From: an uncultured virus (IMG/VR IMGVR_UViG_3300045115_000228)
Lineage: Duplodnaviria > Heunggongvirae > Uroviricota > Caudoviricetes
IMG/VR virus record: IMGVR_UViG_3300045115_000228
Strand: one strand, 5' to 3'
Length of the DNA stretch: 20,000 nucleotides
The notes under the pieces are model-generated. The model worked only from the letters and a program-made list of their open reading frames with translations, had not been told where the DNA came from and searched no databases. A program made the position numbers and the translations under genes. Shown one piece after another: positions 1-18,488 of the stretch. Each line of letters opens with the position of its first letter. Position 1 is the stretch's first letter.

Positions 1-2
1 GC

Positions 3-3000
3 GTGTTCCTCGGGGCCGACTCCAGCGCGCGCGCGAGGCTGCTGCACTTCGAGAACGAGCACGGCGAGTCGAGGTGGATCCCGGCGTCCCACATCAGGCG
101 GATATGGGCCGACAGGACGAGGTTCAGGGTCCAGGTGCTGAACGGCGGAGGCGACTGGGAAGACCATGCCGTGCAGCCGTGGTTCGAGCGGAGGTATCCG
201 ACGGCGGGGGCGGCGCAAAGGGCGATCTCGCGCTATGTCGAGGCCTACCGCAACAGCCACCGGGCCGATCCGGGCGTCACGATGCGCGTCATCGACGAGG
301 AGGGGCACGAGTCGCCATCCCCGTTCGGAAGGTTCGTGGTCGAGGTGTTCCAGGGCCTGGGGGCGGGATGGGCGACCGTGCCGTGGCTGACCGGCAGAGG
401 CGGCGAGCTGGGGTTCTCGACGCGCCAGGCAGGCGAGCAGGCCCTGTCCGACCGCCTGGCGGCCAACCCCGAGACGTCGGACGAGCCAGGGAACTACCGC
501 GTCGTGGACAGGAGCCTGATCCGGAGGACGGCGTCCGCGGGAGGGGTGGGGAAGAGGGCCCAGTTCGACGACGACGGATCCTTCGAGATCGCCTTCCACG
601 AGCTCGGCCCCGATCGGAAGCCTGGCCAAAGGACGTGGGTCTTCGCCGTCGGCCCCAACGGGCGCAACGTCTACTTCAACGACAAGGACGAGTGGGACAG
701 GACACGCAACCCGCCCGAGAAGTCCGGCAACGACGACGAACTCATCGACAGGGTCAAGTGGCTGACGGGGACGGCCGACGACGGGGCGATGGGCGTGTTC
801 GAGCTCGACCCCGGCCAGATCGAGAAGGTCAGGGCCGACCCCTCGTTCGTCGAGGACGGCGACTTCAAGGCGTGGTGCATGAACGCGTTCCCCCACTTCA
901 GGAACGTGGAGGAGTTGACCCTGCTCAGGAAGAGCGGCGACGCGTGGGACTCCATCGGCAGGTTCAGCACGATGGACTCCCTGTGCAGGATCGTGGAAGA
1001 CCAGGTGGCGCGCGGAGGGGACTTCTTCGACTACGGCGCCAGCAGCTCCGTGACCGGCGGCGTCCAGTTGTTCATGATCCAGAAGCAGGTCAACGGGAGA
1101 TGGGGCCACCCGAGGGCTGGCCGCAGGGTCGTCTTCGACGACTACGACGCCGCGACCGCCGCCCTGGGCAGCCCGGGGGAGTTCCCTTCCGACAGCGGGG
1201 ACTACAGGATCGTCGGCAACTGCTCCGACAACCCCGACAACCTCCGCGGGCGCTTCGTCGTCCAGCGCAGGACGAGCCGTGGCTGGCATGCGCCGTACTG
1301 GGACGGGGCCGTGTCGTTCGACGACCCCAGGATCGCATGGCGCGACGTCCAGTCCTACCTGTTCGACCACCCCTCCGCCAGCCCAGGCGACTTCAGGATG
1401 ATCGACGCCCAAGGGGGCACGGCGTCGCCGGCCGTCCTGCCGATCCCGCCGCCGGACAGGTACAACCTGATGAGGCAGGACGAGGACGGCGAATGGATGA
1501 CATTCGGCCACTACGGGGCGGCCGACGACGCCCGCAGGCGTCTGGCCGAGCTGCGCGCCGGCGACCCGACCAACCGGTACAGGGTCGAGCCGGTCTTCCC
1601 GGAGCCAAGACCCGAACCGAGGACAGAGCGCCAATCTTGGGCGGTCGCGAGGTTTGTCGACGACGGGCCTCGGTGGCAGATCGTGTCGGTGTTCGGCACC
1701 AGCGAGGCCGCCAACCGCGAGGTCGCAAGGCTGCGGCTGGCGGAACCCGAGACCAGATTCGGGGTGATCCACAACGTCGTCGAGGCTTCGGCGTCTGGCA
1801 TGGCGAGGACGGCCCAGTTCGACGACGATGAGGAGGAGTTCCAGATCTCCATGCACGAGCTGGAGCCGCCTCCTCCAAGGCCGCCGATCCAGAAGACCCC
1901 GGTCAGGCAGGTCTTCATGATCGAGGAGAGGGCAAGCGACACCGGCGAATGGTCGCCCATCAGCCTGTCAGGGGAAACCGCTCCGAAGTGGTTCTCGTCC
2001 GTCGAGGACGCCGACGCGTTCCTGAGCGGGTACATCAACAGGCTGCTCGACGAGGACGGGGCCGACCTCGACGCCGCCGACAGGAACAACTACAGGATCG
2101 TCGAAGCCTACGTGGACGAGGAGACTGGCAGGCCCGTCGATATGGCTCCCCAGAGGGAGCCGATCGGCGAGGCGACGCAGGCCGGCGGCGCCCAAGGCGG
2201 CGCCCGGCACATGTACATGATCCAGCACGAGTTCGACTACGGATGGGACTACTTCGGGGACAAGAGCGACGACGGGAGGGAGGAGCCATCCGAGTTCCAC
2301 GCCACCGAGGAAGCCGCCAGGGAAGACCTCGAAGAATTCCTTCAGGAGTCCGCCGCCAACGACATGGAATACTCCCGCGACGAGTTCAGGATCGTCCCGT
2401 GCCGCTTCGCCATCGAGGCCCAGGAGGACAGGCCGGGCAGGCCGGCGGAATGGGGCGACGGGGGATGGGAGGACGAGAACGGCGTCAGGATGACGTTCCC
2501 GACGCCCATGGAGGCCCGCGCCGAGATCGCGAACTTCACGGCCGGCAGCCAGAGGAACCGCAACCCCGCCGCGTTCAGGGTCGTCCCGATCCCGCTCGAA
2601 CGCATCCCGGGGTTCGCACAAGCAAGGCAGGACATCCGTCCCCCGCTGCTCTTCGCCTCCGTGACCGTCGACGAGCCGATGGCGGCGAGCATCCCCCAGT
2701 TGAGGGGCCGGGAGGGGGCATACGTCGTGTTCGTCGTCAGGCGCCCGTACTGGGACGAGCACCACGCCCTTGAGCCGAACGAGGACGAAGAGTGCGTCGA
2801 CGCCGTCATGGACGGGGCCATCGACGCCTTCCCGTTCGACGAGCCCAACGTGTTCGTCACGAGGCTGAACGACGTGCAACGCCTCCGCGACGACCCCAGG
2901 TTCGAGGAGAGCCAGGAGCTCGACACGTTCGTCGAGGCGTACGACCTGCGCTTCGCCGACGACCGAAGCCGGCTGCGCCAGGACAGGAACGGGCGCTGCT

Positions 3001-6000
3001 TCATCGACGACACCCCCATCGTCGTCAACGACAGGTACGCTTGGACGGTCCACCCGAGGTTCGCCGGAGAGGCGAACAGGATCGGGGTGGCCGGCGGGGG
3101 CATCATCGGATCGGGGATCCTGCGGGAGATCGACGTCGAGAGACAGGCCCTCACCTTCAACATATCCGACAACGCCATCGTCGACCGCCGACTGAACGCA
3201 TGGTGGATACAGGGCATCCGCCTGCTCAGGTCCCCCACGCGCGGCCTTGGCAGGGTGCGCAGGGCGCAGTTCGAGGACGACGGATCCTTCGAGATCGCGG
3301 TCCACGAGATGGATCCGACCCCGCCGCCGCGGCGGGAACAGCCGGCCAAGGCGGATTCGCAGGCCACGCCAGGGACCGATCCCGACGCCCCATACCGCAT
3401 CGAGCGGCTGGGAGAGGCGGGCGGTCAGGCCGTCGTCGAGACGGTGTTCGAGGAGACCCCGCTCGGCCCCGGGGGAAGGACGAACAGCTTCGACCACCTC
3501 GCCGACGCCAAGGCAGCCCTGTGGTCCGTCCTCTCGTGCCCCAACCAAGACCCGTCCGGCTACCGCATCGTCAACGGCCGCGGGGAGGCGCTGCCAGACG
3601 CGGAATGGTGGGCCGAGGTCGCAGGCAGGATGGGGTACGTCGTGCAGTACCGCAAGCCCACGGGGGAGTGGGACAGGATCGATCCGCTCGGGAACCCGAC
3701 CTACGAGCTCGCCAGCCAGGCGGCCACGAGGTTCGTCAACGACCACCCCGACGTCGGAGGAGGGGACATCCGGATCGTCCCGACCCACGTCGTCAGGGAC
3801 GACGAGGACGCCCCGGAGGCCCAGGCCGACGCCACATGGGTGTACGAGACGGAGCCCATCGACACGGCCATGCGCTCCGCCCTCGGGATGCCACCCGGAT
3901 CGCTCATGGTCACGTTCAAGAGACGCAGCCTGGCGCAAAGGAACGCCGTCGGCGGGAGGCCGGACAGGGAACTCAACGCGACGCTGTCGGGACTGTCCGT
4001 CGGCAACAGGGTCAGCGGGCCGGGGTCGAACCACATGAGGGCGATGACCCTGACGGACCTCTCGCGCCTGCAGGAGGACCAAAGGTTCGCCGACGCGTCC
4101 GCCCGCTACTACGTCGAGGGGAACATGGCGGGACACGCGGGCGGCGAGGTGTGGAGAAGGCTGGAAGAGCCGCACATGACGTCCTTGGACGCCACGCTCT
4201 ACGCCGCGACCCAAGTGGCGAGCCACGGGCACCTCCACGACGGCCGCCCGCAAGGGATCCGCGAGTACAGGGTCGTGAGTGGGTCGGGCGAGGAGTTCGA
4301 CACGTCGGGCTCGTTCGTCGTCGTGGACAGGACGCCGTCCTACCCCGACGAGGCCCGCTTCGTCGTCTCCAGGGAACCGAGCGGAAGGATGGCCCCGCTG
4401 CGCAGGACGTTCTCCAGCGCCGAGGAGGCGGCCGACGCCGCCGTCGGCTGGTGCATCGACAACTCGTACCCTGTCCACGCCATCGAGGTCGTCGACATGG
4501 GCGCCCAGCGGGCGATCCCCCTGGCGCGGCTCGCGGCAGGAAGGCGCGCGCCCGGATCGGGCGAGGACGAGATCGTCGCCGGCGGCACGACGCTGCGCGT
4601 CGGGCAGGCCTATGCGTTCGTGTACGCCCCCGGGGCCGCCGACCGCCGCTCCGCGCTCCCCGGCAGGGCCATCCTCGCCGGCATAGAGCCGTCGGCCGGG
4701 GGCGGGGCCACGCTGGTGCTGCAGAACTTCGACGAGGACGAGGACGAGGACATCCGCGTCGGATCACAGTGGATAGCCGCCGCATCCCCCCTCGACGTCC
4801 CCGAAGAGCAGGTGGACGTGGTGGAAACCGACGGCTCCGTCGCGGGCGCCCCCGCCGCATGGGCGAACAACCCCTACGCGACCCGCGCCGGGGCCAGGGC
4901 CGCCATAAACGACCGCCACGACCAGACCAACGACGAGAACGCCTACGCCATCGTGGGCCACACGTCCAGGACGCTGCTTGAGGTGATCAGGGTTCCGCGG
5001 TGGTCAATGGAAGGCATCATCCCGGCCACGTCGATAACGAGGGCGATAGCGGGGAGGATGTCCCGCATCCTGCGCTCGATGGGCTATGCCTCAAGGGGGG
5101 CCGACGACGTGCTTGAGGCGCTGCGCGGGCGCCCGAACGGCGGACGGCCGATGCTCGACGACGGCAGGCTGTGGCACCCCGACTGGGTCAGGGCGTACGA
5201 GCAGGCCGTGACGCGCCGCAGGGCGTCCACGAGGATCGCCCAGATCGACGACGAGGGAGCGTTCGAGATCGCCGTCCACGAGACGGAGCCGCAGGAGCGG
5301 GGGACCGCGGCCGAGCCGGCGGGGCAAGCCAAGGCGTGGCCGCCCCTGTACGACCCCGACGCGGAGGGGATCGACGAGGACGCCGCGAGGAAAATCTTCG
5401 AGGGGCACGGGTTCGCCCTGCTGGACGTGCGCCAGCCGTACCAGTCGGACGCCCACGTCGCCGCCTTCGACATCGAGTCCATGAACCTCGACGGGATCGC
5501 CGAGCCGGAGGAGCTCGTCGCCGTCAAGCGGGTCCTGCAGGCCGACGGTCACGCGACGGACGTCAGGATCGATTCGACCGGCCCGTCCGCCATCGTCACG
5601 TTCGACGTCCCCGTCTTCTACGTGCGACGCCCGTTCTTCGGCGGCTCGGCGCGCCCGGCCGCCAAGACCGCCCAGTTCGAGGAGGACGAATACTTCGACG
5701 TCAGCTTCCTCGGGGAGGCGGCGCAGGAGGCCCACGAGAGGGACATGATAGCCGGCCAGGAGTGGTTCGCGATCCAGTACAGGACGACCTACGGATGGCT
5801 CGTGCCGAAGTGGGACCAGCCGTGGGCCGGGGGGAAGACCTGGGGCCCGACGGCCTACCCGACCGAGGACAAGGCAAGGGATGCGATCAGGAACTACGTG
5901 TCCGGCAACGCCAGCAACTTCAACCCTCCCCTCACGACCAACAGCTTCCGCGTGGTCAGCAACAAGCGGGGCGTGATCCCCGTCCCCCGCTTCAGGGCCT

Positions 6001-8762
6001 ACTACGCCAACGACGACGGGCGCAGGATGCCGTTCTCCGGCGAGCTGGCGCACCAGTTCGGAAGCGAGGCCGAGGTGAGGGAGGCCATCGAGAGACACGT
6101 CAAGGAGCACAGGACGACGGCCAGGAAGGCGCGGTACGTCGTCGTCGACGAGTCGACGGGGGACGACGGGGCGCCCGTCGTCGACGGCAGCGACGGGAAG
6201 CCTGAGCGCTTCTTCGTGCAGCACGGCAAGAGGGAGAAGGACTACGCCTTCCTCGCCGGGGGCGACGGCAAGCCGAGGGAGTTCGGGTCGGCGGACGAGG
6301 CGTTCCGCGAGGCCACGAGGATCGTCGCGAGGAACGCGCCCCCGCACAAGGTCAGGGTGATCAGCAGCCACTCCGGCGTCGTCGACCCGAGGCCCCAAGT
6401 GCCCGGATCCGGCGAGCCGAGGCTGCCGGACGGCCAGTTCCAGGAGCCGTACGCCATCGAGCAGTGGGACGCCCCCTCGTCGTCGTGGACGACCATATCG
6501 CACCGCGGCTACGAGCGCGCGGACGAGGCGTGGGCCGCCGCGGCGAACATATCGAGGACGACCAACGGCCCGTCCCCCTCCGGTCTGCGCGTCAGGGACT
6601 CCGCCGGCCGCATCCTGCCCCGCCCGCCCTTCTTCGGCGAGCAGGACCCTCCGAACGTCCGCAACCCCTGGAGGATCGAGTACAGGATGACGGGCGCGTC
6701 CCCAAGCTCCCCATGGAACCACCACGCGTCCTACGCCACGCGGGAGGAGGCCCAAGGCGTTCTGGACGAGATCGGCGACACCCTCGCGAGGGTCACCACC
6801 ATGGACGTCAGGATCGTCAACGTCGACTCCGGACAGCCGAGGGTCGTCGTCCAGAGGACAACGCCGACGCCAGGCGCGGGATCGGGCGGGAACTACTACC
6901 CGCAGGCGCTCGACCCCGAGGCCGGAGGATGGGTGCTGCTGGACGGGCAGTCCAACGCCACATTCGCCACGCCCGAGGAGGCGTGGTCGTCCGCCCGGCA
7001 GTGGATGAACGCGGGCCACATGCTCCCCGCCCCAGACGCCTCAAGGATCAGGGTCGTCGGGCCTGACGGGCGCCCCGTGCGGAGGGCGCCATTCTGGGGG
7101 AGCGAGGCGGTGCCCATCTCCGAGTGCGAACAGTGCGGGGCGTTCCACGAGCTCGACTTCGCGGACGACTGCCGCGACAACAACCACAGGTTCTCCGACG
7201 CCGAGGACGCATCCCGCAGGCTCGGCAGGCCCGCGGTCGAGGTGTACCCGCCGGAAGAGGAAGATCCGGAAGAGGAGGGGCAAGACGACAGGGACGTGTC
7301 ACCCGTCGCGCTCACGCTCAACATCCCCTACGCTCTGACGTTCACGAACGACGTGGACATGAGACCAACGACGGCCACGCTCCGCATGGTGCAGGGTTCG
7401 CTCGATGGCAACAGTCATGTGCTCACATTCGAAAACCCGCGCGGAAACCGCTTCAGCATCGATTGGAGGAACGTGTCGTCCTGCGTCAGCGTCATGGAAA
7501 GGCTGGAATACCTGCGCGGCGAGATCGATGCCGAGCGGATCAGCCAGGAGGAGATCGCCGAACTGCAGGGTCTCGCGGAGTTCATCGAGCCGGGCGACGT
7601 GACCCTGCTCCAGTGGGCCGGGGTCCCGGAGGAAGGACAGGCGGAGCCGCAGCCCCCCTTCTTCCCCCAGACCAACGTCCAGGGGCAATGGCGCCCGATC
7701 AGGCGCCTCGTCCCAGGGGGAGCGCGGTCGGACGAGTTCCCGACCGCGGACGAGGCCTGGGGGACGGCGGACGAACACGCCAGGAGGAACGGCCTGATGC
7801 CCGTGATGGTCAGGGTCGTCGATTCCGCCGGCAACGACGTCCCGAGGCCAAGCCAGGCGGACGAGTCGAGGGAAGGGCCAACGGTCGCCGGAGTCAGGCT
7901 CGTCAGGGACGAGGTCTACGACGTGACCTACGGGCCCAACAACGAGTCCATCGACGGGGTGTTCGTCGGTGTCGACCCGCCCTCGGCATGGCTCGTCTTC
8001 CGATCCCCTCCGTCGTCGGAGAGGACGATCGCCATCGACCCCAACGAGGTGGTCTCCGTCCGCCGGGACGCCCCTCCTCGGCGCAACAGGAGGGGGCGGG
8101 GTCTCACGGTGGGGCAGCGCGAGAGGCTGATCCGGGGCTTCGCCGAGTGGAGCGGAGGGACGACCCCCGACAGGGCCAACAGGGAGGACGTGGCGTCGTA
8201 CGTCCAGTCGTCGCTCCCCGACGACGCCCCCGCCGGGGCCGCCGAATGGCTCCTGTCGATCGCCGGCACCGGCCCGCAGAACGATCCGGCGACGGAGAAC
8301 ACCAGGCCGCCGCCGGAGTCGTTCGTCAACGGCCAGACCTACTCGTGGACGTCCACGACCAACGCCAACCACCCGACCCACGGATCCTACATCCAAAGGG
8401 GCGTCACCGGAAGGGGAGAACCCGTCCTCCTGTTCGAGGACGCCCAGGGCGACCAGTTCGACGTCAGGTGGGACGCGATGACGACGGTCAACATCGAGGG
8501 CGGCCAGGACGCCGGGGCCCTGTACCTCAAGTTCACCGAGACCCCAGAGGGGATGCAGGCGATCACGGCGGCCCAGTCCATCCTTGAGGACGCCGACTCC
8601 GGCGTCGACCAGCAGCAGGCGGTCGATTCCGCCATGGAGCACGCCGAGAGGTGGTACCGGGACCTGCACGAGGGGTTCGCCGGATCGTGGGAGGACGACT
8701 GGGGGGAAGTCAGCGAAGCCTTCGCCGACGAGGTGAGGAACGCCATCGCCTTGAGCCGTTGA
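3..8762 (+). CDS. Giant multidomain repeat protein (putative phage polyvalent protein/polyprotein), 5'-truncated at window edge
   Basis: Uninterrupted 2919-codon frame with G/C-ending codons and normal globular amino-acid composition, unlike the Arg/Pro/Gly-rich alternative frames. About 22 copies of a ~50-65 aa module, about 6 copies of a beta-rich module and 5 copies of a [KR]xAQ[FI][DE][DE] motif. The frame begins mid-domain at the window edge, so the true start lies upstream. Confidence is for coding status; function unknown. Confidence 0.93.
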   Translation: MFLGADSSARARLLHFENEHGESRWIPASHIRRIWADRTRFRVQVLNGGGDWEDHAVQPWFERRYPTAGAAQRAISRYVEAYRNSHRADPGVTMRVIDEEGHESPSPFGRFVVEVFQGLGAGWATVPWLTGRGGELGFSTRQAGEQALSDRLAANPETSDEPGNYRVVDRSLIRRTASAGGVGKRAQFDDDGSFEIAFHELGPDRKPGQRTWVFAVGPNGRNVYFNDKDEWDRTRNPPEKSGNDDELIDRVKWLTGTADDGAMGVFELDPGQIEKVRADPSFVEDGDFKAWCMNAFPHFRNVEELTLLRKSGDAWDSIGRFSTMDSLCRIVEDQVARGGDFFDYGASSSVTGGVQLFMIQKQVNGRWGHPRAGRRVVFDDYDAATAALGSPGEFPSDSGDYRIVGNCSDNPDNLRGRFVVQRRTSRGWHAPYWDGAVSFDDPRIAWRDVQSYLFDHPSASPGDFRMIDAQGGTASPAVLPIPPPDRYNLMRQDEDGEWMTFGHYGAADDARRRLAELRAGDPTNRYRVEPVFPEPRPEPRTERQSWAVARFVDDGPRWQIVSVFGTSEAANREVARLRLAEPETRFGVIHNVVEASASGMARTAQFDDDEEEFQISMHELEPPPPRPPIQKTPVRQVFMIEERASDTGEWSPISLSGETAPKWFSSVEDADAFLSGYINRLLDEDGADLDAADRNNYRIVEAYVDEETGRPVDMAPQREPIGEATQAGGAQGGARHMYMIQHEFDYGWDYFGDKSDDGREEPSEFHATEEAAREDLEEFLQESAANDMEYSRDEFRIVPCRFAIEAQEDRPGRPAEWGDGGWEDENGVRMTFPTPMEARAEIANFTAGSQRNRNPAAFRVVPIPLERIPGFAQARQDIRPPLLFASVTVDEPMAASIPQLRGREGAYVVFVVRRPYWDEHHALEPNEDEECVDAVMDGAIDAFPFDEPNVFVTRLNDVQRLRDDPRFEESQELDTFVEAYDLRFADDRSRLRQDRNGRCFIDDTPIVVNDRYAWTVHPRFAGEANRIGVAGGGIIGSGILREIDVERQALTFNISDNAIVDRRLNAWWIQGIRLLRSPTRGLGRVRRAQFEDDGSFEIAVHEMDPTPPPRREQPAKADSQATPGTDPDAPYRIERLGEAGGQAVVETVFEETPLGPGGRTNSFDHLADAKAALWSVLSCPNQDPSGYRIVNGRGEALPDAEWWAEVAGRMGYVVQYRKPTGEWDRIDPLGNPTYELASQAATRFVNDHPDVGGGDIRIVPTHVVRDDEDAPEAQADATWVYETEPIDTAMRSALGMPPGSLMVTFKRRSLAQRNAVGGRPDRELNATLSGLSVGNRVSGPGSNHMRAMTLTDLSRLQEDQRFADASARYYVEGNMAGHAGGEVWRRLEEPHMTSLDATLYAATQVASHGHLHDGRPQGIREYRVVSGSGEEFDTSGSFVVVDRTPSYPDEARFVVSREPSGRMAPLRRTFSSAEEAADAAVGWCIDNSYPVHAIEVVDMGAQRAIPLARLAAGRRAPGSGEDEIVAGGTTLRVGQAYAFVYAPGAADRRSALPGRAILAGIEPSAGGGATLVLQNFDEDEDEDIRVGSQWIAAASPLDVPEEQVDVVETDGSVAGAPAAWANNPYATRAGARAAINDRHDQTNDENAYAIVGHTSRTLLEVIRVPRWSMEGIIPATSITRAIAGRMSRILRSMGYASRGADDVLEALRGRPNGGRPMLDDGRLWHPDWVRAYEQAVTRRRASTRIAQIDDEGAFEIAVHETEPQERGTAAEPAGQAKAWPPLYDPDAEGIDEDAARKIFEGHGFALLDVRQPYQSDAHVAAFDIESMNLDGIAEPEELVAVKRVLQADGHATDVRIDSTGPSAIVTFDVPVFYVRRPFFGGSARPAAKTAQFEEDEYFDVSFLGEAAQEAHERDMIAGQEWFAIQYRTTYGWLVPKWDQPWAGGKTWGPTAYPTEDKARDAIRNYVSGNASNFNPPLTTNSFRVVSNKRGVIPVPRFRAYYANDDGRRMPFSGELAHQFGSEAEVREAIERHVKEHRTTARKARYVVVDESTGDDGAPVVDGSDGKPERFFVQHGKREKDYAFLAGGDGKPREFGSADEAFREATRIVARNAPPHKVRVISSHSGVVDPRPQVPGSGEPRLPDGQFQEPYAIEQWDAPSSSWTTISHRGYERADEAWAAAANISRTTNGPSPSGLRVRDSAGRILPRPPFFGEQDPPNVRNPWRIEYRMTGASPSSPWNHHASYATREEAQGVLDEIGDTLARVTTMDVRIVNVDSGQPRVVVQRTTPTPGAGSGGNYYPQALDPEAGGWVLLDGQSNATFATPEEAWSSARQWMNAGHMLPAPDASRIRVVGPDGRPVRRAPFWGSEAVPISECEQCGAFHELDFADDCRDNNHRFSDAEDASRRLGRPAVEVYPPEEEDPEEEGQDDRDVSPVALTLNIPYALTFTNDVDMRPTTATLRMVQGSLDGNSHVLTFENPRGNRFSIDWRNVSSCVSVMERLEYLRGEIDAERISQEEIAELQGLAEFIEPGDVTLLQWAGVPEEGQAEPQPPFFPQTNVQGQWRPIRRLVPGGARSDEFPTADEAWGTADEHARRNGLMPVMVRVVDSAGNDVPRPSQADESREGPTVAGVRLVRDEVYDVTYGPNNESIDGVFVGVDPPSAWLVFRSPPSSERTIAIDPNEVVSVRRDAPPRRNRRGRGLTVGQRERLIRGFAEWSGGTTPDRANREDVASYVQSSLPDDAPAGAAEWLLSIAGTGPQNDPATENTRPPPESFVNGQTYSWTSTTNANHPTHGSYIQRGVTGRGEPVLLFEDAQGDQFDVRWDAMTTVNIEGGQDAGALYLKFTETPEGMQAITAAQSILEDADSGVDQQQAVDSAMEHAERWYRDLHEGFAGSWEDDWGEVSEAFADEVRNAIALSR

Positions 8763-8787
8763 CCCCCGGCCAAGGAGGACCTATAAT
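8759..8787 (+). promoter_or_regulatory. Sigma70-type promoter TTGACC-N17-TATAAT
   Basis: TTGACC 8759-8764 (contains the TGA stop of the giant ORF), 17-bp spacer, perfect TATAAT 8782-8787; GGAGG at 8796-8800 and ATG at 8807 downstream. Confidence 0.8.
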
Positions 8788-8806
8788 GGACGACCGGAGG
8801 AGCCAG

Positions 8807-9415
8807 ATGGAACCGAGGAAGACCAGGGAGGAAGGAGGCGGCGTCCTCGCCGCCATCGCCAGGCTGATCAACAACATCCTTGAGTTCCTCGCCAACAGGA
8901 GGAGGCGACAGGAGGAGGAGCTCAAGCGCAAGGAGATCGAGGCGGCCAAGGACGAGCTCAGGAGGGCCCTCGCCGAAGGCAGGGAGCAGGACGCCGCCTA
9001 CTGGCGCAAGAGGCTGCTCATGCTAACGGGGGCCCTGGCCGCCGCCCTGCTTCTGTTCGTCGGCCCGGCGGGATGCAGGACCACGGGAGGTGACGCCCAG
9101 CCCGCCCATCCCGCCCCTCCCGCGCAGGTCGTGCAGGCGGAGAGGGTGTCCAAGGCCAAGCCCGGCGACGTCCTCGTCCTGCCAGCCCCCACGCCCCCGG
9201 CCACGCGCTGGGTGCTGGCCGACGACGTGGGGATCTTCCAGGCCGTCGACGCCGGCGTGGTCGTGATGGGCGACAGGTTCAGGGACGTCGCCCCGGGAAG
9301 CCCGTGCGAGGTGCCGAGGCTGAAGCCGCCGGCGAGACAGTGGTATGTTGCCGACGACGTCGGCCTGAAGGAGTGGATGGGGATAGCCCTTGGGCCGTCC
9401 CCCAAGGGAAGGTGA
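8807..9415 (+). CDS. Membrane/lipoprotein with N-terminal helical/coiled-coil segment, internal signal-peptide-II-like segment and duplicated C-terminal motif (possible spanin-like lysis protein)
   Basis: GGAGG RBS 6 nt before ATG 8807 (alternative ATG 8786 overlaps the -10 box). Charged helix RRRRQEEELKRKEIEAAKDELRRAL; then RKRLLMLTGALAAALLLFVGPAG-C (Cys codon 9074-9076); two copies of PP(A)xxWxxADDVG. Confidence 0.75.
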   Translation: MEPRKTREEGGGVLAAIARLINNILEFLANRRRRQEEELKRKEIEAAKDELRRALAEGREQDAAYWRKRLLMLTGALAAALLLFVGPAGCRTTGGDAQPAHPAPPAQVVQAERVSKAKPGDVLVLPAPTPPATRWVLADDVGIFQAVDAGVVVMGDRFRDVAPGSPCEVPRLKPPARQWYVADDVGLKEWMGIALGPSPKGR

Positions 9416-9418
9416 GCC

Positions 9419-10138
9419 ATGCCGTTCTACTTCAGGGTCAACAGGGTCAAGGTCATCGACAACCGCGAGTGGGGCCTGTGGATCCTCAAGCGCGACATCG
9501 CGCAGGTCAGGTTCACCAGCCTCGTCACGACGGGCGACGACGACTTCCCGGCCGTCGGCGCCCTCAAGGGCGGGGCCAGGGACGCCAAGGCGCTCCGCGA
9601 CGCCGCGGCCTCCGTCGTGGCCCAGGTCATAAGCCGGAGGACGACGCTCGCCATCGACGGCATCAAGGACGGACAGACCATCACCTTCGGCGACACGGGG
9701 TACGTCGTACACCGCTCCGACGCCATCCCCGAGGACTTCAACTGGTGCCTGCTCGCCATGGAGGACGAGCAGGCCCTGCGCAACTTCGGCCAGACCCTCT
9801 CGACGGTCGTCGGGTCGTCCGGCTTCGACGGCTTCGCCCAAGGGCTGTCCGTCCTCGTGGGGGCGTCAGCCAACCCGGCGTTCGCCGCCGGGACAGCCGT
9901 GGCCAAGTTCGTCGCCGAGGTCCTCGCGGCGTACCTCAAGGGCAAGGGCGACGAGATGATCGGGGCCCTCTACCTGTCCCTCAACCGCCGCGAGCACTAC
10001 CCCCACGGCGAGCGCAAGTCGGACGGCGTGCCGGACCTCTCCGGCAACATGCTCGTCGACTACTCGCTGTTCGGGTTCGAAGCCACGCCCCCGGTGCCAG
10101 CCGACGCGCCGCCGGCGGCGCCGCGCAGGATGCCCTGA
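9419..10138 (+). CDS. Hypothetical protein (239 aa)
   Basis: ATG 3 nt after the previous stop, with a GAAGGTGA RBS-like sequence; strong GC3 bias; globular sequence with a Gly/Ala-rich hydrophobic helical hairpin (GLSVLVGASANPAFAAGTAVAKFVAEVL). Confidence 0.85.
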   Translation: MPFYFRVNRVKVIDNREWGLWILKRDIAQVRFTSLVTTGDDDFPAVGALKGGARDAKALRDAAASVVAQVISRRTTLAIDGIKDGQTITFGDTGYVVHRSDAIPEDFNWCLLAMEDEQALRNFGQTLSTVVGSSGFDGFAQGLSVLVGASANPAFAAGTAVAKFVAEVLAAYLKGKGDEMIGALYLSLNRREHYPHGERKSDGVPDLSGNMLVDYSLFGFEATPPVPADAPPAAPRRMP

Positions 10139-10830
10139 CGGCGCAGCCTGGCGAGCAGCCTGCGCCACCACGCCGGAGGGGCAAGCCTCGCCTCCAGCCT
10201 CTCCATGTCGATGGAGAACGACCCGTGGGACCCGGAAGGGCCGCCCTGGAAGGGGACGACCATCCCTACGGGACCGTGCGACGGGACGTCGACCTTCAGC
10301 GAGTCCGCCCACCTCTGCGCGGCCTGGAGCCTGGCGTCGTCCCTGACCGCCCCGGCAAGCGACTCCAAGGGGCCCTTCCCGAACACCGCGTCGCCCAGCG
10401 CCGCCGCCAGACCGGAAGGATCGAGCGGCCTCATCTCGATGCCCCTGATCGCCGCCGTCATGTCGGCCCCCATCGCCAGCCGCGAGGCCACTGCGCCGCT
10501 GTACTCCGCCCACGCCCTCCCGACGACCGACGAGGCGTCCGACAGGCGGTACTCCTGCGGCCCCGTGGCCCCTTCCCTCTCGCGCCTCGCCGCCGCCTCG
10601 GCGTCTATCCGCCGCGCCTCCTCGTCGCTGATCCTGTACAACTCCGGGTTGCGCCTGCGCTCCTCCCCCCTGGCAGCAGCCTCCATCGCAACGTCCTGCG
10701 CCTCAAGGAGCTTGCGGTCCTCCTCGGTCTCGCAGCCCCACGGCCTGCCGGCCGCCGCCGCCACGTCCGCGTCGTGCGTGACGTGCCTCCCGACCCCGTC
10801 CCTCGAAACGATCGCCGATGCCCTTGGCAT
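10060..10830 (-). CDS. Hypothetical protein (256 aa, helical/charged)
   Basis: Shortened from ORF 10060..11085. ATG at 10830 with GGAGG RBS at 10836-10840 and an upstream minus-strand promoter. The 3' end overlaps the convergent 9419..10138 gene by 79 bp. Confidence 0.75.
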   Translation of the reverse strand: MPRASAIVSRDGVGRHVTHDADVAAAAGRPWGCETEEDRKLLEAQDVAMEAAARGEERRRNPELYRISDEEARRIDAEAAARREREGATGPQEYRLSDASSVVGRAWAEYSGAVASRLAMGADMTAAIRGIEMRPLDPSGLAAALGDAVFGKGPLESLAGAVRDDARLQAAQRWADSLKVDVPSHGPVGMVVPFQGGPSGSHGSFSIDMERLEARLAPPAWWRRLLARLRRQGILRGAAGGASAGTGGVASNPNSE

Positions 10831-10885
10831 GTCGACCTCCATGTGGCCTCCGGTGGACGCACCATGCGTGACCGTGGCCGGTGGC

Positions 10886-10914
10886 ATTGTACGCGGGACG
10901 AAGTGGGTGGACAA
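10886..10914 (-). promoter_or_regulatory. Sigma70-type promoter TTGTCC-N17-TACAAT (leftward)
   Basis: Minus strand: -35 TTGTCC (10909-10914), 17-bp spacer, -10 TACAAT (10886-10891), upstream of the RBS/ATG at 10830. Confidence 0.7.
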
Positions 10915-10935
10915 GCCGAACAGACCAGAAGCCGG

Positions 10936-10964
10936 TTGACTCCCGGAAGGCGAAACGGTATCAT
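10936..10964 (+). promoter_or_regulatory. Sigma70-type promoter TTGACT-N17-TATCAT (rightward)
   Basis: TTGACT 10936-10941, 17-bp spacer, TATCAT 10959-10964, followed by AGGAGG RBS (~10972-10977) and ATG 10985. Confidence 0.8.
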
Positions 10965-10984
10965 GAGGCGCAGGAGGACAATCC

Positions 10985-12130
10985 ATGTCTGGAAACATCA
11001 CTCTGGCGTCGCATCTGTTCGACCTCAAACAGCGCGAGGAGGCGGACATCCGGATGGCGGTGTCCCTCGGGAGGAACAAGGCCATCCTTGTCGAGGGAGA
11101 CTCAAGGGAAATGATGGATCACATCGATGCCGAGAGCGCATCCCTGGTCTTCACCTCTCCACCGTATTGCATCGCCAAGCAGCGCGAGTACGGAGACGGA
11201 CAGTCAACGGACTACTCCCCCGACAAGTACGTCCAGTGGGCGATGACGTTCGTGCCCCACATCGAGCGTGTCCTCTCCCCCCGTGGCGTCTTCGCGCTCA
11301 ACATCGATGCCGGATCCATGCGCGGGGAACAGATGACCCAGGACATGGAACTGGTCATCAGCATCGTCAGGGGCAGCGGCCTTTTCCTCCTCCAGAAGTT
11401 CGTGTGGGCGAAGAGGAACTACATGCCGGGGTACTGGCCCAACCACTTCGCCAAGAGCCACGAGCTCGTCTACGTGTTCGCGAAGCGCGGCCTCAAGGGG
11501 GATCTCCTTCGCCGCGACAGGATGATGGTGTACCAGGGCGCATGGAGGGGCAAGAGGCTCATCGGGAAGTCATACTCCGGCGATCTCAAGAGGAACGTGT
11601 CGGCCACCGGCAGCGGCGGAGGAAGGCGCGTCGCCAACTGGTTCACTGGCGACCCCAAGTGCCCCACCAAGGAGGTCGCCTACCCCTCCAGCGTGCTCAG
11701 GCTCCCAACGTCGTGCTCCGACAAGGGGCACAGCGCGTCCTTCCCCATCGCGCTGCCGTCGTGGTTCGTCAGGGCGTACACGGATCCAGGCAGCCTCGTG
11801 GTCGACTGCTTCGTCGGCGGAGGCACGACGTGCTCGGCGGCATCCATGCTCGGCAGGAGGTCGGTGGGGATAGACCTGTCGCCGACGAAGGCTTTCAAGG
11901 ACGAGCGGGCTTTCCTGGCGTCCGACAAGGCCGCCGCGGCACACAGGGCGTCAAGGATGACCGACATGAGGACGGAACTCGCCATGGTCAAGAGGATGCA
12001 CGCCGAGACCGGCCTGTACCCATCGATCAAGGACTACGAGATCGACGAGCAGGCCATCTCCGCCATGGCCAACGCCCGCGAGCAGGATCCGATCCGCGGC
12101 TGTATAATGGCCGCATGCTCGGATACCTGA
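10985..12130 (+). CDS. Beta-class amino (N4-cytosine/N6-adenine) DNA methyltransferase, probably m4C
   Basis: EGDS...LVFTSPPY catalytic motif IV near the N-terminus; GHSASFPIALP and LVVDCFVGGGTT...GRRSVGIDL SAM-binding motif I near the C-terminus (beta order). SPPY is typical of m4C MTases. Confidence 0.93.
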   Translation: MSGNITLASHLFDLKQREEADIRMAVSLGRNKAILVEGDSREMMDHIDAESASLVFTSPPYCIAKQREYGDGQSTDYSPDKYVQWAMTFVPHIERVLSPRGVFALNIDAGSMRGEQMTQDMELVISIVRGSGLFLLQKFVWAKRNYMPGYWPNHFAKSHELVYVFAKRGLKGDLLRRDRMMVYQGAWRGKRLIGKSYSGDLKRNVSATGSGGGRRVANWFTGDPKCPTKEVAYPSSVLRLPTSCSDKGHSASFPIALPSWFVRAYTDPGSLVVDCFVGGGTTCSAASMLGRRSVGIDLSPTKAFKDERAFLASDKAAAAHRASRMTDMRTELAMVKRMHAETGLYPSIKDYEIDEQAISAMANAREQDPIRGCIMAACSDT

Positions 12131-13041
12131 CCTACCACAAGCCTTGGCCGGATGGCGACGACAAGGAAGGCTGCGTCGAGCTCGCCAACTACGTCGAGCC
12201 ATTGTTCATAGCGACGCACGGGCCCGGAACGCGCCTCGGCATCCCGATCCGCCGAAACCCCGAGAAGGACTCGAACCCGTTCGCGATCGACCTGTCCCAC
12301 TCCGTCGCAGGGCCCTCGGACCTCAAGTTCAGGCGCGACCCGTTCTACTTCGGCGAGCGAAGGTACTCCGTCCACCCGCAGTACCTCATGACGTTCAACA
12401 GCGAGGACTCCCAATGGTATGCGATGGACCACGGGGATCCAGGAATCTACTTCTGGACGCAATGGGAGCCGTCCGACTCGGACGACGCCGGCCTGTTCCA
12501 CGGCAGGAGGCAACTCGTCAGGGGCATGGTGTCAGTCCATGAGGCGAGGCTTGCGGAGGTCGTCGCCGAAGGAAGCCGACGGGAGAGGCATTGGTACCGC
12601 AACAAGACCAGGGTCTTCGGGGACGGAGGGAACAAGAAGTCCTCGCTGGTCATCGACTTGCGCCGGCTGCCGTGCATCGACATGGAACTGGACCCGGAAT
12701 GCTGGCCAGACACCCCCGAGGACTTCACCGGGATGCTGAGGGACGAGATCGCGTATGGCAGGTTCTCCGACGGGGACGCGCTCCCGTTCGCCTCCAACGA
12801 GCCGATGGCCTCCGTCGCCGAGTCCGCCGCACTCATCCTTGAGTCGGAGGGGCTCGCCAGGCGGTCGGAAGTCAGGCTCCTCGACGGGAGGGTCGTCGGC
12901 AGGTGGACCACGACCGTCTCCCCGTACGAAAGGCTCATGCTGACGTCGAGGCTGGCCCGGGAAGGCTTCAACGAGCGCCAGGAGGGCATCAGGATGATGT
13001 CATGCCGCAACCCGTGGGCCAGGAGGAGAGGGATCGGATGA
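12115..13041 (+). CDS. Putative PD-(D/E)XK-fold nuclease (308 aa)
   Basis: Only the C-terminal part of ORF 9304..13041, from ATG 12115, has protein-like composition. E...NPEKDSNPFAID-L...PSDLK pattern fits a PD-(D/E)XK active site. The stop overlaps the next ATG (ATGA 13038-13041). TATAAT at 12103-12108 sits just upstream. Coding status confident, nuclease call moderate. Confidence 0.65.
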   Translation: MLGYLTYHKPWPDGDDKEGCVELANYVEPLFIATHGPGTRLGIPIRRNPEKDSNPFAIDLSHSVAGPSDLKFRRDPFYFGERRYSVHPQYLMTFNSEDSQWYAMDHGDPGIYFWTQWEPSDSDDAGLFHGRRQLVRGMVSVHEARLAEVVAEGSRRERHWYRNKTRVFGDGGNKKSSLVIDLRRLPCIDMELDPECWPDTPEDFTGMLRDEIAYGRFSDGDALPFASNEPMASVAESAALILESEGLARRSEVRLLDGRVVGRWTTTVSPYERLMLTSRLAREGFNERQEGIRMMSCRNPWARRRGIG

Positions 13042-14060
13042 GGTCGGCAAGCCTGTTTTCCGGGGCCCTTGGACTCGACCTCGGCCTTGAGGCCGCCGGG
13101 TTCCACGCCGTGGCCGCCGTCGAAAGCGACAGGCATGCCGCGGCGACGATCCGCCGGAACCGGCCGGGCGTCGAGATCCTGACGGACGCCTTCGACCAGG
13201 CGACGCTCGCGAGGCTCAAGGAGCTCGGCCCGTTCGACCTGGTGTGCGGCGGCCCGCCATGCCAGAGCTGGTCCCACGCCGGGAAGAGGCTGGGCCTCGA
13301 CGACAACCGCGGCCTCTGCATCCCGAGGTTCATCGACATCGTGGCCCTGCTGTCCCCGGAGTTCGTCGTCATGGAGAACGTCCACGGGTTGATGACCGCG
13401 TCCATCGACGGGGAGAAGGGCGCCGTCGTCAGGATGGCGACGGACAGGCTGTCGAGGATGGGATACGCGGCGAGCGTGATCCTCGCCAACGCCGCCGACT
13501 TCGGGACGCCCCAGTCGCGCAAGCGCGTCGTCATCCTCGCCAGGCTCGGCGGACCGGCCCCGAGCCTGGAACAGACGCATGCCCAATCCCAACAGCCCGA
13601 CCTCTTCATGGGCGCCCCCCTCCTCGCCAAGTGGCTCACGCTCAAGGACGCGATAGGCGACAGGCCGAAGGGCGATTGCGCCGCCTATCCGGAGTCGAAG
13701 GCGAGGTTCTTCCGCATGATCAAGCCGGGCCAGGACTGGAGGAGCCTCCCAGAGGCCGAGCAGGAGGCCGCGATGGGGAACGCCATCCGTTCCGGCGGAG
13801 GACGGACAGGCTTCTTCCGCAGGCTGTCGTGGGAAAGACCGTCGCCAACCCTGACGTGCAGCCCCCTGGGGAAGGCCAACGCCTTCTGCCACCCCGACGA
13901 GGTCCGCCCCCTCAACGTCGCCGAGTACGCCCGCGTCCAAGGCTTCCCCGACTCCTGGAGGTTCGAGGGGCCCCTCATGGCCCGCTACCGCCAGATCGGC
14001 AACGCCGTCCCCGTCCAGCTCGGCGAGGCCATCGGCAGGGCGCTGTCGGAAAGCAGTTGA
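13038..14060 (+). CDS. DNA (cytosine-5)-methyltransferase (340 aa)
   Basis: All hallmark C5-MTase motifs: SLFSGALG (I), GGPPCQSWS (IV), ENV (VI), QSRKRV (VIII), RVQGFP (IX), YRQIGNAVP (X). Start coupled by an ATGA overlap with a purine-rich RBS. Confidence 0.97.
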   Translation: MRSASLFSGALGLDLGLEAAGFHAVAAVESDRHAAATIRRNRPGVEILTDAFDQATLARLKELGPFDLVCGGPPCQSWSHAGKRLGLDDNRGLCIPRFIDIVALLSPEFVVMENVHGLMTASIDGEKGAVVRMATDRLSRMGYAASVILANAADFGTPQSRKRVVILARLGGPAPSLEQTHAQSQQPDLFMGAPLLAKWLTLKDAIGDRPKGDCAAYPESKARFFRMIKPGQDWRSLPEAEQEAAMGNAIRSGGGRTGFFRRLSWERPSPTLTCSPLGKANAFCHPDEVRPLNVAEYARVQGFPDSWRFEGPLMARYRQIGNAVPVQLGEAIGRALSESS

Positions 14061-14085
14061 CTCCGCCATCCGAAAGGAGCATAGT
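14057..14085 (+). promoter_or_regulatory. Possible sigma70 promoter TTGACT-N17-CATAGT
   Basis: TTGACT 14057-14062 overlaps the MTase stop; the -10 is only a partial match; ATG at 14092 lies about at the expected +1. Confidence 0.4.
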
Positions 14086-14091
14086 TGCCAC

Positions 14092-15531
14092 ATGAAGGAA
14101 CCCACAGCCACTCCTGCGGACGACTCCCTTCCGAAGACGACGGAAGACGGATGGAGAGCCGACAAGACATACGAGACGTCCGGGAAGACGGCCAAGTATG
14201 CCATGGGCGTCGCCTGCGGCCTTGAAAAAGAGGTGTCCGACCTGAAGGAGAGAAGCCACAAGGACCTGTTCAGGATCATGAGCGTGCAGGCCTCCCAAGC
14301 GCGCGAGCGGCTCGCGTCCTTCGGATTCCACGTCGCGTCAGCATTCCCGGAGCCGCTGTCGGCCTTCCACCTGTCGCCGCACGGGGTGGTCGTGGTCAGG
14401 GGATGTGCCGACATGTCCATGAGCAACTTCTTCCCCAACGACGGCGGCCAAGCCGTCCCGGAAGACATCTCCGTCGCCTACCACCGTGTCCCTCGCGAGT
14501 TCTTCAAGGAGGGATGGCTTGACGCCACCGAACAGACGTTCAAGAGGATGGTCGTGGAATACCCCAGCGAATGCCTCCTGTCAATGCTGGACAGGTCCCT
14601 GAAGGCAGACTTCATCGTCGTGCTCGGTGGGCCTAGCGGTCTTGACGTCAACATCGACCCCATCCCGCTCCCCCCCGTTGTCGTGAGAACCAGCGACGTC
14701 AACAGGAATGCCATCGAAAGGGTCATCCGCCGCATCGCCGTGACCAAAGAGCCGTTGGCCAAGTTCAGGAGCAACAGGAGATACGACGAGAACGACCCGT
14801 GGGGCGGGTCCTACAACTCGTGGGCGTTCGACCCCGAGACAGGGATCAGGCTGGCAAGGTTCGCCTCCCAGGCGAACAGGGCAACGACCCAGACGTCGTT
14901 CGTCATGTCGTCCATCCTGTACTTCGGAGGAGTCATGCCCGGCTGGATGTCCCCCCCTCGGGTTGGCCAAGCGGCGTGCTTGTCGTCCACCCTGTACAAG
15001 GGGTCAGTCTTCGGGGACGAGACGCAACCCCAGCCCCTTCCGCCGACGGGCGAGGACCCCGCGGACGAATGGTCGCCCATTGACCAAGAGTCGGAAGGCG
15101 ACCCCAGGTTCCAAGAAGGGAGAAGGAAAAGAGGAAGGCATTCGCGTCTGGAGCGCGACCCCGCCCTGCGCAAGGCGTTCCTGGCCGCCAATCCGAAACC
15201 GCGGACCTGCGAGGCTTGCCTGACCAACTTGACGTCACGATACCCGTGGACGGAAGCCATTCAAGTACACCATCTCCTGCCCCTGTCTTCGGACGCCAGC
15301 AGTGGGACCACAAGCCTCCACGACGTGGCGGGACTTTGTCCAAGTTGCCATGTGGCCATCCACTCGTTCTACGACATGCGCCTCGCAATGGCCGGCAAGG
15401 GGGACTTCGAGTCCATCGACGAGGCAAGGACCGTGTTCGAAACGGCGTGCGAGTCCATACGCGGACTGGCAGAAGACGCCAATGACGCTCCAGTTGGCAA
15501 GGAAAACGGCCATGCGCACGTTCAGGATTGA
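14092..15531 (+). CDS. Protein with C-terminal HNH (McrA-like, zinc-binding) endonuclease domain and ~330 aa unrecognised N-terminal region
   Basis: FQEG...HSRLERDPALRKAF, CEAC, QVHHLLPLS, LCPSCHVAIH: the EG/H-x3-ER/CxxC/HH/CxxCH signature of McrA-type HNH nucleases. Confidence 0.88.
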   Translation: MKEPTATPADDSLPKTTEDGWRADKTYETSGKTAKYAMGVACGLEKEVSDLKERSHKDLFRIMSVQASQARERLASFGFHVASAFPEPLSAFHLSPHGVVVVRGCADMSMSNFFPNDGGQAVPEDISVAYHRVPREFFKEGWLDATEQTFKRMVVEYPSECLLSMLDRSLKADFIVVLGGPSGLDVNIDPIPLPPVVVRTSDVNRNAIERVIRRIAVTKEPLAKFRSNRRYDENDPWGGSYNSWAFDPETGIRLARFASQANRATTQTSFVMSSILYFGGVMPGWMSPPRVGQAACLSSTLYKGSVFGDETQPQPLPPTGEDPADEWSPIDQESEGDPRFQEGRRKRGRHSRLERDPALRKAFLAANPKPRTCEACLTNLTSRYPWTEAIQVHHLLPLSSDASSGTTSLHDVAGLCPSCHVAIHSFYDMRLAMAGKGDFESIDEARTVFETACESIRGLAEDANDAPVGKENGHAHVQD

Positions 15532-18095: not shown

Positions 18096-18488
18096 GCGTA
18101 TTATTTCTGGTAGTCCCAAAGGGAACCCTTCTTGAAATTCAGTGACCTGTAATAATTTTCGAAATGACTGGAGTCCCAATGGTGCCGGGAGTCCCAGATA
18201 GGCGGGCCGGGGGGCCGGGCTGCCCACGCCAGAATTGGAAACGAAAAACTACAGACCCCCCTTGATCCATACGGCCCCCTTCTCATCCGTGAGATGGCTC
18301 GGCGCACGCTCCCTCCGTCTGGGGTGGGACAGCCTGCCGGAGTGGGGGAGCGCCCGTCCGCCCTCCGCCCGGCGTCGGCCCAGGGCAGCCGCGGCTTCGA
18401 GGCTCCTTGGGCGCCGCCACTCCGGCGTGGGCTGGAGCGGCAAGGGGCAGGTCGCCCTGCCCCTCGCAGCCATAGCCTGACCGCCAGC

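Follow-up and report, generated by a model that had tools for sequence, protein, structure and literature searches.

The window analysed here, a 20,000-nucleotide stretch of DNA from an uncultured virus of the Caudoviricetes (IMG/VR record IMGVR_UViG_3300045115_000228), contains most of a gene for a giant protein of 3657 residues. The protein has an N-terminal 2H phosphoesterase domain and an array of small, highly diverged modules. We establish its anatomy, its conservation and the association of its relatives with phages. Our preferred explanation, which we put forward tentatively, is a polyvalent counter-defence protein built mainly from these repeats and encoded by a phage or some other large mobile element, uncultured and of high GC content. 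By sequence profile and by fold search, the best solved match of the module is the anti-CRISPR protein AcrIC8, an inhibitor of type I-C and I-E Cascade.

The module array and its gene

Fifteen seed copies, anchored at the C-terminal [YF]R[IV][VI] and then aligned, were used to build leave-one-out hidden Markov models (HMMs). The omitted copy scored 6.0–39.5 bits, and 14 of the 15 exceeded the best score among 50 shuffles of the protein (8.0 bits). The iterated first HMM detected 19 copies at 17–65 bits and three marginal ones (−0.9 to −2.7 bits); on 50 shuffles it gave a single domain at or above 5 bits, with a maximum of 7.4. A second HMM was built from window modules and stand-alone relatives, and its scores in the window (20 copies at 14.9–54 bits and two marginal ones at 3.5 and −0.7 bits) are partly due to this construction. 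Upstream of the window it identified five copies that were absent from its training set (18.7, 23.2, 11.3, 6.4 and 11.8 bits). The whole protein contains 24 copies scoring at least 10 bits and up to three more marginal ones, with lengths of 55–80 residues, a mean column identity of 25% and a mean pairwise identity of 20%.

The HMM consensus, F-x-V-x...W...F-x-T-x-x-x-A...helix...R-V-V, agrees with the recurring motif noticed in a preliminary description of the window, which was made from the letters alone. That description counted about 22 copies at nucleotides 120–7850 and proposed excising and aligning them to build an HMM. Its count was right: the repeats align significantly, and the HMMs and shuffle controls place the modules at nucleotides 90–7832. 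Its coordinates hold within the window, but the window edge is not the limit of the array: five more copies lie upstream, as does the gene start, 2214 nt away.

A single open reading frame (ORF) of 2919 codons, with a third-position GC fraction (GC3) of 0.92, fills nucleotides 3–8762 of the plus strand. The metagenome contig L010 (3650 nt) overlaps window positions 1–389 with 100% identity, and the frame continues on it to an ATG at L010:1050. Residues 739–3657 of the 3657-residue protein P0091 are identical to the window translation (P0001). P0091, found on a contig of 142,314 nt, is one of seven near-identical members of a cluster drawn from two archives; the contigs encoding the protein are 125–142 kb long. 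The modules of the window therefore sit within the 3′ 80% of a 3657-codon gene. Pfam searches with the whole protein, 20 modules and 12 non-repeat segments returned 2H families only. The gene and its modules are listed below, with residues numbered as in the window translation.

3–8762 (+): giant gene, 3′ part, 2919 of 3657 codons; ATG 2214 nt upstream of the window, at L010:1050
90–305 (+), residues 30–101: module 1 (AcrIC8-like), 34.9–41 bits
306–518 (+), residues 102–172: module 2, 46–47 bits
1038–1226 (+), residues 346–408: module 3, 30–45 bits
1221–1415 (+), residues 407–471: module 4, 48–59 bits
1440–1601 (+), residues 480–533: module 5, short form, 17.5–22.6 bits
1605–1781 (+), residues 535–593: module 6, 19.8–23.8 bits
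1881–2114 (+), residues 627–704: module 7, 38–52 bits
2184–2405 (+), residues 728–801: module 8, nearest the stand-alone proteins (YGWDYFG), 53–54 bits; P0003 counterpart 47% identical
2397–2594 (+), residues 799–864: module 9, 39–43.5 bits
3366–3584 (+), residues 1122–1194: module 10, 30–37 bits
3603–3791 (+), residues 1201–1263: module 11, 40–51 bits
4074–4289 (+), residues 1358–1429: module 12, 23–27 bits; leave-one-out just 6.0 bits
4329–4505 (+), residues 1443–1501: module 13, 14.9–19.4 bits
4818–4967 (+), residues 1606–1655: marginal module, recognisable in helix and last strand only, −2.5 and 3.5 bits
5733–5969 (+), residues 1911–1989: module 15, copy used for structure prediction (pLDDT 80.3), 49–65 bits
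5979–6158 (+), residues 1993–2052: module 16, −2.7 bits with the first HMM and 19.2 with the second, which included this copy; aligned with P0005, P0003 and P0004 counterparts
6183–6374 (+), residues 2061–2124: module 17, 37 bits; P0005 counterpart 45% identical
6426–6608 (+), residues 2142–2202: module 18, followed by PRPPFFG, 27–33 bits; P0005 counterpart 49% identical
6636–6830 (+), residues 2212–2276: module 19, 31–36 bits
6861–7070 (+), residues 2287–2356: module 20, followed by RRAPFWG, 33–56 bits; P0005 counterpart 48% identical
7143–7271 (+), residues 2381–2423: marginal module with CxxC...H...C in place of the first strands, −0.9 and −0.7 bits
7626–7832 (+), residues 2542–2610: module 22, 39–49 bits

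Relatives and predicted fold of the module

A profile search of 1.84 billion representative sequences retrieved 75 proteins at E ≤ 1e-3. We inspected the sequences of 43 of them; P0008 and P0011 were unrelated repeat proteins, so that at least two matches are spurious. Among the 75 are five multi-module proteins, P0003 (3167 residues), P0004 (2240), P0005 (1643), P0006 (791) and P0007 (508). About 40 of the 75 are small proteins of 57–140 residues with the consensus Y-x-V-E...Y-G-W-E-N-x-W...P-x-T-F-x-T-x-x-E-A...Y-R-I-V. Compared with each other, the array profile and the stand-alone profile matched with 98% probability (E = 2.5e-13), a value that is partly circular because one profile found the members of the other. 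A locus search in viral contigs, which used the single protein P0047, placed stand-alone relatives in three IMG/VR contigs. In L013 their neighbours include Erf, MazG and a replication protein; L014 has a PHROG annotated as 'anti-restriction' close by, and in L012 terminase and portal genes are near.

Twenty-one of the 24 modules are closer to a counterpart in another giant protein (mean identity 37%) than to any sister copy (mean best identity 30%). One six-module cassette is colinear with P0005 (41% identity), P0003 (31%) and P0004 (29%); other cassettes are common to the relatives in a different order. Every module position thus retains its own sequence identity, which argues for distinct functions. 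Judged by their sequences, the copies are ancient paralogues and not the product of recent or hypervariable amplification. The suggestion in the preliminary description that a scaffold had been amplified into a diversified library consequently needs to be changed, given these distant counterparts and the colinear cassette. Separately, P0007 and P0013 (346 residues) contain five or six tandem copies that are far more alike (EPYIVQ...SW...AAQAQQAIEEA...YRVFNE), apparently from a recent amplification of their own.

Four further profiles were used: A2 (cassette alignment), A3 (three giant-protein 2H heads), A4 (stand-alone relatives) and A5 (stand-alone relatives with window modules). Contig searches were negative with P0001 (viral contigs) and with A2 (viral, genome and metagenome contigs), and neither A2 nor A3 had a match among the representative genomes of 185,579 species. 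A protein homologue search with region 1890–2620 returned the window's own cluster only, and a search for longer proteins with A4 returned nothing, which is weak evidence.

AlphaFold2 (AF2) structures were predicted for one window copy and one stand-alone relative, with predicted local distance difference test (pLDDT) scores of 80.3 and 87.2, respectively. Both show the order strand, strand, short strand, long helix, strand, which supports the small beta-beta-(beta)-alpha-beta scaffold proposed earlier as an autonomous fold. The module also lacks a named family, as had been stated: none of 20 modules reached any Pfam cut-off, and PHROGs and NCBIfam gave no match with the whole protein or the 20 copies. 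The proposed likeness to YegP or DUF2188 gained no support, as there was no Pfam match at E ≤ 10 among the 20 modules and neither family appeared in the fold searches, although a relation too remote for the Pfam HMMs, the only test made of it, is possible.

Among 177,635 PDB sequences, AcrIC8 (PDB 8g9s chain A) ranked first with profiles A4 (E = 0.011) and A5 (E = 0.015) and was absent with A1. The A4 and A5 alignments extend from the start of the F-x-T-R-x-E-A helix through the last strand. By fold, too, AcrIC8 was the best solved match; Foldseek against the PDB gave no row below E = 0.6 for either AF2 model. Because the same chain tops both the sequence search and the fold search, we judge it somewhat likelier than not that the module and AcrIC8 share a distant ancestor. 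They have in common a size of approximately 60–70 residues, the beta-beta-(beta)-alpha-beta order (predicted for the module), carriage by mobile elements and, in the HMM alignment, the F-x-T-R-x-E-A helix and a final [YF]-[KR]-I-V strand. According to the accessible portion of its description (bioRxiv 10.1101/2023.08.05.552134), AcrIC8 is a flat protein that inserts like a wedge into the groove for the target strand in type I-C Cascade and holds Cas8 trapped. The AcrIC8 paper names Y11, E22 and R58 as residues contacting Cascade, and the available text of PMC7913775 reports that AcrIC8 stops DNA binding by I-C and I-E systems.

The BFVD fold search returned small uncharacterised phage proteins only (best E = 0.015, probability 1.00). 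Two of them, at ranks 15 and 18 (E = 0.13–0.14), belong to DUF7336 (PF24024), a family of small phage proteins without known function that is like the module in size and predicted fold. However, the DUF7336 cut-off of 25 bits was reached neither by the 20 window modules nor by any of 14 stand-alone relatives (57–138 residues) that were scanned, and the best score was 24.9 bits for one module of P0005. DUF7336 is at most a sister family of the module. The ESM Atlas gave unnamed clusters only, mostly viral, with scores of 0.90 or less, which we treat as leads.

A different role would follow if the modules resembled the RNase H1 hybrid-binding domain or the double-stranded RNA-binding domain (dsRBD), the latter being a topology suggested in the preliminary description. 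The protein would then be a nucleic-acid-binding array that coats or sequesters nucleic acid, such as host RNAs or the genome on entry, while the 2H head acts on RNA ends. The sole sign of such a relation is a weak RNase H1 hybrid-binding domain row (E = 0.028), which scores below AcrIC8 and has no support from the fold searches. No dsRBD or Cauli_VI match was found by Pfam in the 20 modules at E ≤ 10. The isoelectric point (pI) is below 7 in 19 of the 24 modules and is 4.84 for the whole protein; protein binders or nucleic-acid mimics fit such acidity better than nucleic-acid binders, and we regard this alternative as unlikely.

N-terminal head, linkers and gene neighbourhood

The N-terminus of the protein, upstream of the window, is a 2H phosphoesterase domain. 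Its score for the Pfam family Acb1 (PF23474) is 29.1 bits, above the cut-off of 27 (E = 9.3e-7, L010:1227–1784); it also matches 2_5_RNA_ligase2 with 25.3 bits and phrog_755 with E = 2.8e-11. Both H-x-T motifs are present in the P0091 head (HVT in GHPHVTAKY and HAT in RPHATLAY) and are invariant in the three-protein alignment A3. In T4 Acb1, the catalytic histidines are H44 and H113 (Hobbs et al. 2022, accessible text of PMC9117128). P0003, P0004 and P0005 also carry the 2H head, with mutual identities of 65–67% and scores under the Acb1 cut-off (17–22 bits). In the viral contig L007, a portal protein next to head-morphogenesis and head-protease genes ends in a fused 2H domain that is related to this head (37% identity). 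Nucleotides 7946–10591 of that contig, and likewise L001–L006, encode an 881-residue portal with a C-terminal 2H domain (phrog_10963, E = 9e-20; phrog_755, E = 3.5e-9), followed by head-morphogenesis, glycosyltransferase and head-protease genes. The occurrence of 2H domains in polyvalent proteins and in fusions to MuF or portal is described in the accessible part of Iyer et al. 2017 (PMC5512222).

Six conserved linkers split the 3657-residue protein into seven cassettes. Their consensus is A-S-x-x-G-x-x-[KR]-x-A-Q-[FIY]-[DE]3, often followed by F-E-I-x-x-H-E-x-x-P. A regular expression, which was derived after the fact, finds six occurrences in P0091 and is present in 6 of 2000 shuffles. An HMM of the six P0091 linkers alone, which reached at most 2.6 bits on shuffles, scored higher than this at 12 sites in P0003, P0004, P0005, P0006, P0017 and P0019. 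The motif stands at the start of the 317-residue P0019, and a weaker form at the start of the 111-residue P0065. Prohead proteases follow the site rules S/A/G-x-E and L/I-x-E; these fit some linker copies only, and an assignment as a known prohead-protease site was dropped.

A second, beta-rich type of module (type 2) is present in five copies and recurs in P0003, P0004, P0005 and P0006. The HMM of the five copies scored 26.5 and 8.4 bits in P0004, 13.5 in P0005, 11.5 and 13.5 in P0006 and 6.8 in P0003, with a shuffle maximum of 0.5. A third conserved domain also occurs in P0003 and P0006; by blastp, P0001 residues 1212–1431 match P0003 residues 790–1012 (31% identity, E = 1.9e-22), and P0006 matches at residues 57–211. 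The linkers and other parts of the protein in the window are as follows.

552–617 (+), residues 184–205: linker KRAQFDDDGSFEIAFHELGP, conserved linker motif
1806–1871 (+), residues 602–623: linker RTAQFDDDEEEFQISMHELEP, conserved linker motif
3258–3323 (+), residues 1086–1107: linker RRAQFEDDGSFEIAVHEMDP, conserved linker motif
5232–5297 (+), residues 1744–1765: linker RIAQIDDEGAFEIAVHETEP, conserved linker motif
5664–5729 (+), residues 1888–1909: linker KTAQFEEDEYFDVSFLGEA, conserved motif, aligned with the linkers of P0005, P0003 and P0004
3–122 (+): beta-rich type 2, copy 1, C-terminal part (begins upstream of the window), type 2 HMM
4566–4811 (+): beta-rich type 2, copy 2, type 2 HMM
7296–7508 (+): beta-rich type 2, copy 3, type 2 HMM
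7866–8087 (+): beta-rich type 2, copy 4, type 2 HMM
8274–8558 (+): beta-rich type 2, copy 5, type 2 HMM
2592–3257 (+): non-repeat region of approximately 220 residues, no Pfam match at E ≤ 1
3834–4070 (+): third conserved domain (TWVY...LVTF...ELN...DPRF), common to P0003 and P0006, no Pfam match
8559–8759 (+): C-terminal helical tail, kept at the P0006 C-terminus (blastp, P0001 2760–2911 and P0006 636–786, 29% identity, E = 2.7e-7)

Two short features accompany particular modules. At 7122–7190 (residues 2374–2396), the C-x2-C...H...C...H stretch CEQCGAFHELDFADDCRDNNHRF occupies the site of the first strands of a module and may be a zinc knuckle; the CxxC...H...C stretch is kept in P0004 (blastp, residues 2367–2479 and 1856–1957, E = 2e-11). 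The motif R-x-P-F-[FW]-G follows some modules, as PRPPFFG at 6609–6635 (residues 2203–2211), RRAPFWG at 7071–7100 (residues 2357–2366) and RRPFFGG at 5625–5650 (residues 1875–1884). In alignment A2, PRPPFFG is retained in P0005 and partly in P0003 (PRPPAWG), and it could be a short docking motif.

Head-internal proteins of T4 and phiKZ-type phages have repeated processing sites, which the repeated conserved linkers resemble. The giant protein might accordingly be structural or scaffolding cargo, namely an internal virion, 'inner body' or ejection protein, in which the modules are beads or spacers, the linkers are maturation-protease sites and any anti-defence role is limited to the 2H head. 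The large size and acidity of the protein would suit such cargo, as would the related 2H domain fused to a portal beside a head protease. The processing of P1 DdrB before packaging, which is cited together with the injection of Alt in the accessible text of PMC5512222, offers a precedent. In contrast, mere spacers would not need a sequence of their own, as seen in the 21 modules that are closer to a foreign counterpart than to any sister. The module also occurs as a free protein of 57–80 residues in non-structural regions of phage contigs, and no head genes lie nearby in the window. We find a purely structural role improbable.

Around the giant gene lie genes for two DNA methyltransferases and for HNH proteins, a fragment resembling guanylate kinase, and family-less ORFs. 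Three co-oriented genes occupy 10985–15531. Two of them encode the DNA methyltransferases, one of the N6/N4 type (PF01555, E = 1.2e-30) and one of the C5 cytosine type (PF00145, E = 9.7e-61); the other encodes a 479-residue protein with a C-terminal HNH motif (PF01844, E = 8e-6). The trio might form a restriction-modification unit or supply a mobile element with self-protective methylases. On the minus strand, a 327-residue ORF (17244–18227) has a Cys-rich N-terminal part that matches the HNH-endonuclease phrog_374 (E = 1e-12). Approximately 500 nt upstream of the giant-gene start, L010 78–542 encodes a 154-residue guanylate-kinase-like ORF without its N-terminal third (phrog_1815, E = 3.9e-16). 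The ORF directly downstream of the giant gene (8780–9415) is family-less; its N-terminus is a coiled coil, and a Cys comes immediately after its single hydrophobic span. It is followed by a family-less ORF of 239 residues (9419–10138). Searches with two neighbour ORFs, including the latter, found no relative in cultured phages. A 1245-codon ORF at 9304–13041 (+), rich in Arg, Gly and Pro, overlaps several real genes and was set aside as spurious, an out-of-frame product of the high GC content.

It is very unlikely that the giant gene is chromosomal, from an uncultured bacterium of high GC content, and has a cytoplasmic role unrelated to mobile elements: the guanylate-kinase-like ORF, the 125–142 kb contigs, the absence of tRNA genes and of mobile-element hallmarks in the window apart from methyltransferases and HNH genes would suit it, but the A2 and A3 probes were empty among the representative genomes, relatives of the 2H head and of the module occur in viral contigs, the orphan-looking methyltransferase pair and HNH genes are typical of phage or mobile DNA, and the guanylate-kinase-like ORF is truncated and matches a PHROG.

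Possible function and comparison with known systems

For a counter-defence protein, the following mechanism can be proposed. The module would be akin to AcrIC8, which inserts itself as a wedge in a defence complex, and would act as an inhibitor scaffold that binds proteins; every copy would be aimed at a different host or defence component. The 2H head would degrade nucleotide alarm signals. The linkers may serve as recognition sites: a protease could cut there to free the cassettes, or each cassette could begin with a signal for targeting or packaging. The giant protein would act early, possibly delivered with the DNA like other phage polyvalent proteins. An anti-defence role had been guessed in the preliminary description and gains some support from the best match to AcrIC8, the Acb1-like head and the stand-alone relatives in phage contigs, although the targets are conjectural.

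Several points weigh against this explanation. The whole protein had no near-identical or protein-level match among PLSDB plasmids and INPHARED phages that could serve as an experimental anchor; the stand-alone relatives P0047 and P0035 likewise had no match among phages and plasmids. The Acb1 match is restricted to profile positions 59–113 of 144, and the A3 profile of the three heads retrieved nothing from the PDB at E ≤ 1. Besides 2H, no Pfam domain typical of polyvalent proteins was found (large polyvalent protein domain (LPD), MPTase, ART, SNF2 and others), including the LPD models with which a comparison had been suggested. Neither the 11 kb downstream nor the 1 kb upstream of the giant gene contains a protease, portal, terminase, capsid or conjugation gene. 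With no head or conjugation genes nearby, we can only infer the kind of element and the packaging, and the same holds for cleavage at the linkers.

A more far-reaching version is conceivable but doubtful. One gene would provide a ready-made cocktail of approximately two dozen anti-defence inhibitors and a signal-degrading enzyme, with the K-x-A-Q-F-acidic linkers as cleavage or packaging signals. Cassettes loaded into the particle or freed upon entry would disarm many immune systems before phage gene expression, and the module would represent a scaffold for inhibitors, both widespread and evolvable, with AcrIC8 as its sole characterised member.

If the counter-defence explanation is true, approximately 24 distinct candidates for inhibiting bacterial immunity, all of them conserved in distant elements, come from one protein, and a new small-protein family includes AcrIC8 and is also present as unannotated free phage proteins. 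The linkers would then represent a rare polyprotein-style organisation in a bacterial DNA mobile element and would bear on how phages place anti-defence proteins before defence acts. Even on a modest reading, the module, the beta-rich module and the linker are here named and delimited as three sequence families that lacked annotation.

The head resembles the anti-CBASS protein Acb1 in passing the Pfam cut-off and in its two H-x-T motifs. Acb1, however, is a free protein of approximately 150 residues, whereas here the domain heads a 3657-residue protein and aligns with the middle of the profile alone. The internal proteins of T4 carry a targeting peptide. Head-internal proteins (T4 internal proteins and Alt, P1 Dar) are pre-made, borne in the capsid and injected against host defence, and their short conserved packaging peptides are cut off, features to which the giant protein may be compared. 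They differ in that every one is encoded separately and has a single signal at its N-terminus; in the giant protein, six similar motifs, recognised from sequence, lie inside one polypeptide.

The closest comparison is with the polyvalent proteins of Iyer, Burroughs, Anand, de Souza and Aravind (2017, PMC5512222). The giant protein shares with them a very long polypeptide, many autonomous domains, a 2H phosphoesterase and a mosaic order of domains or cassettes between relatives, and the proteolytic release of parts is proposed in the accessible text of that paper too. It has the several autonomous domains, including a conflict enzyme, that define this class (the 2H domain, at least 24 modules, five beta-rich modules and unique domains), with one enzyme domain recognised. 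In contrast to the 2 to 15 domains, mostly enzymes (peptidases, ARTs, helicases and methylases), reported there, it has more than 30 domains, nearly all small and non-enzymatic, with one unnamed module dominant and with repeated conserved linkers. It also differs in showing no MuF, portal, peptidase or type IV secretion system (T4SS) association in the window or L010 and no Pfam LPD match. The 'giant proteins' of crAss-like phages were considered and rejected as unrelated, being transcription proteins according to the available text of PMC7886860. Our literature search found no description of approximately 27 AcrIC8-like modules with repeated conserved linkers. Polyvalent proteins as such are already known; to judge by that search, what is new here is the array of AcrIC8-like modules with its repeated conserved linkers.

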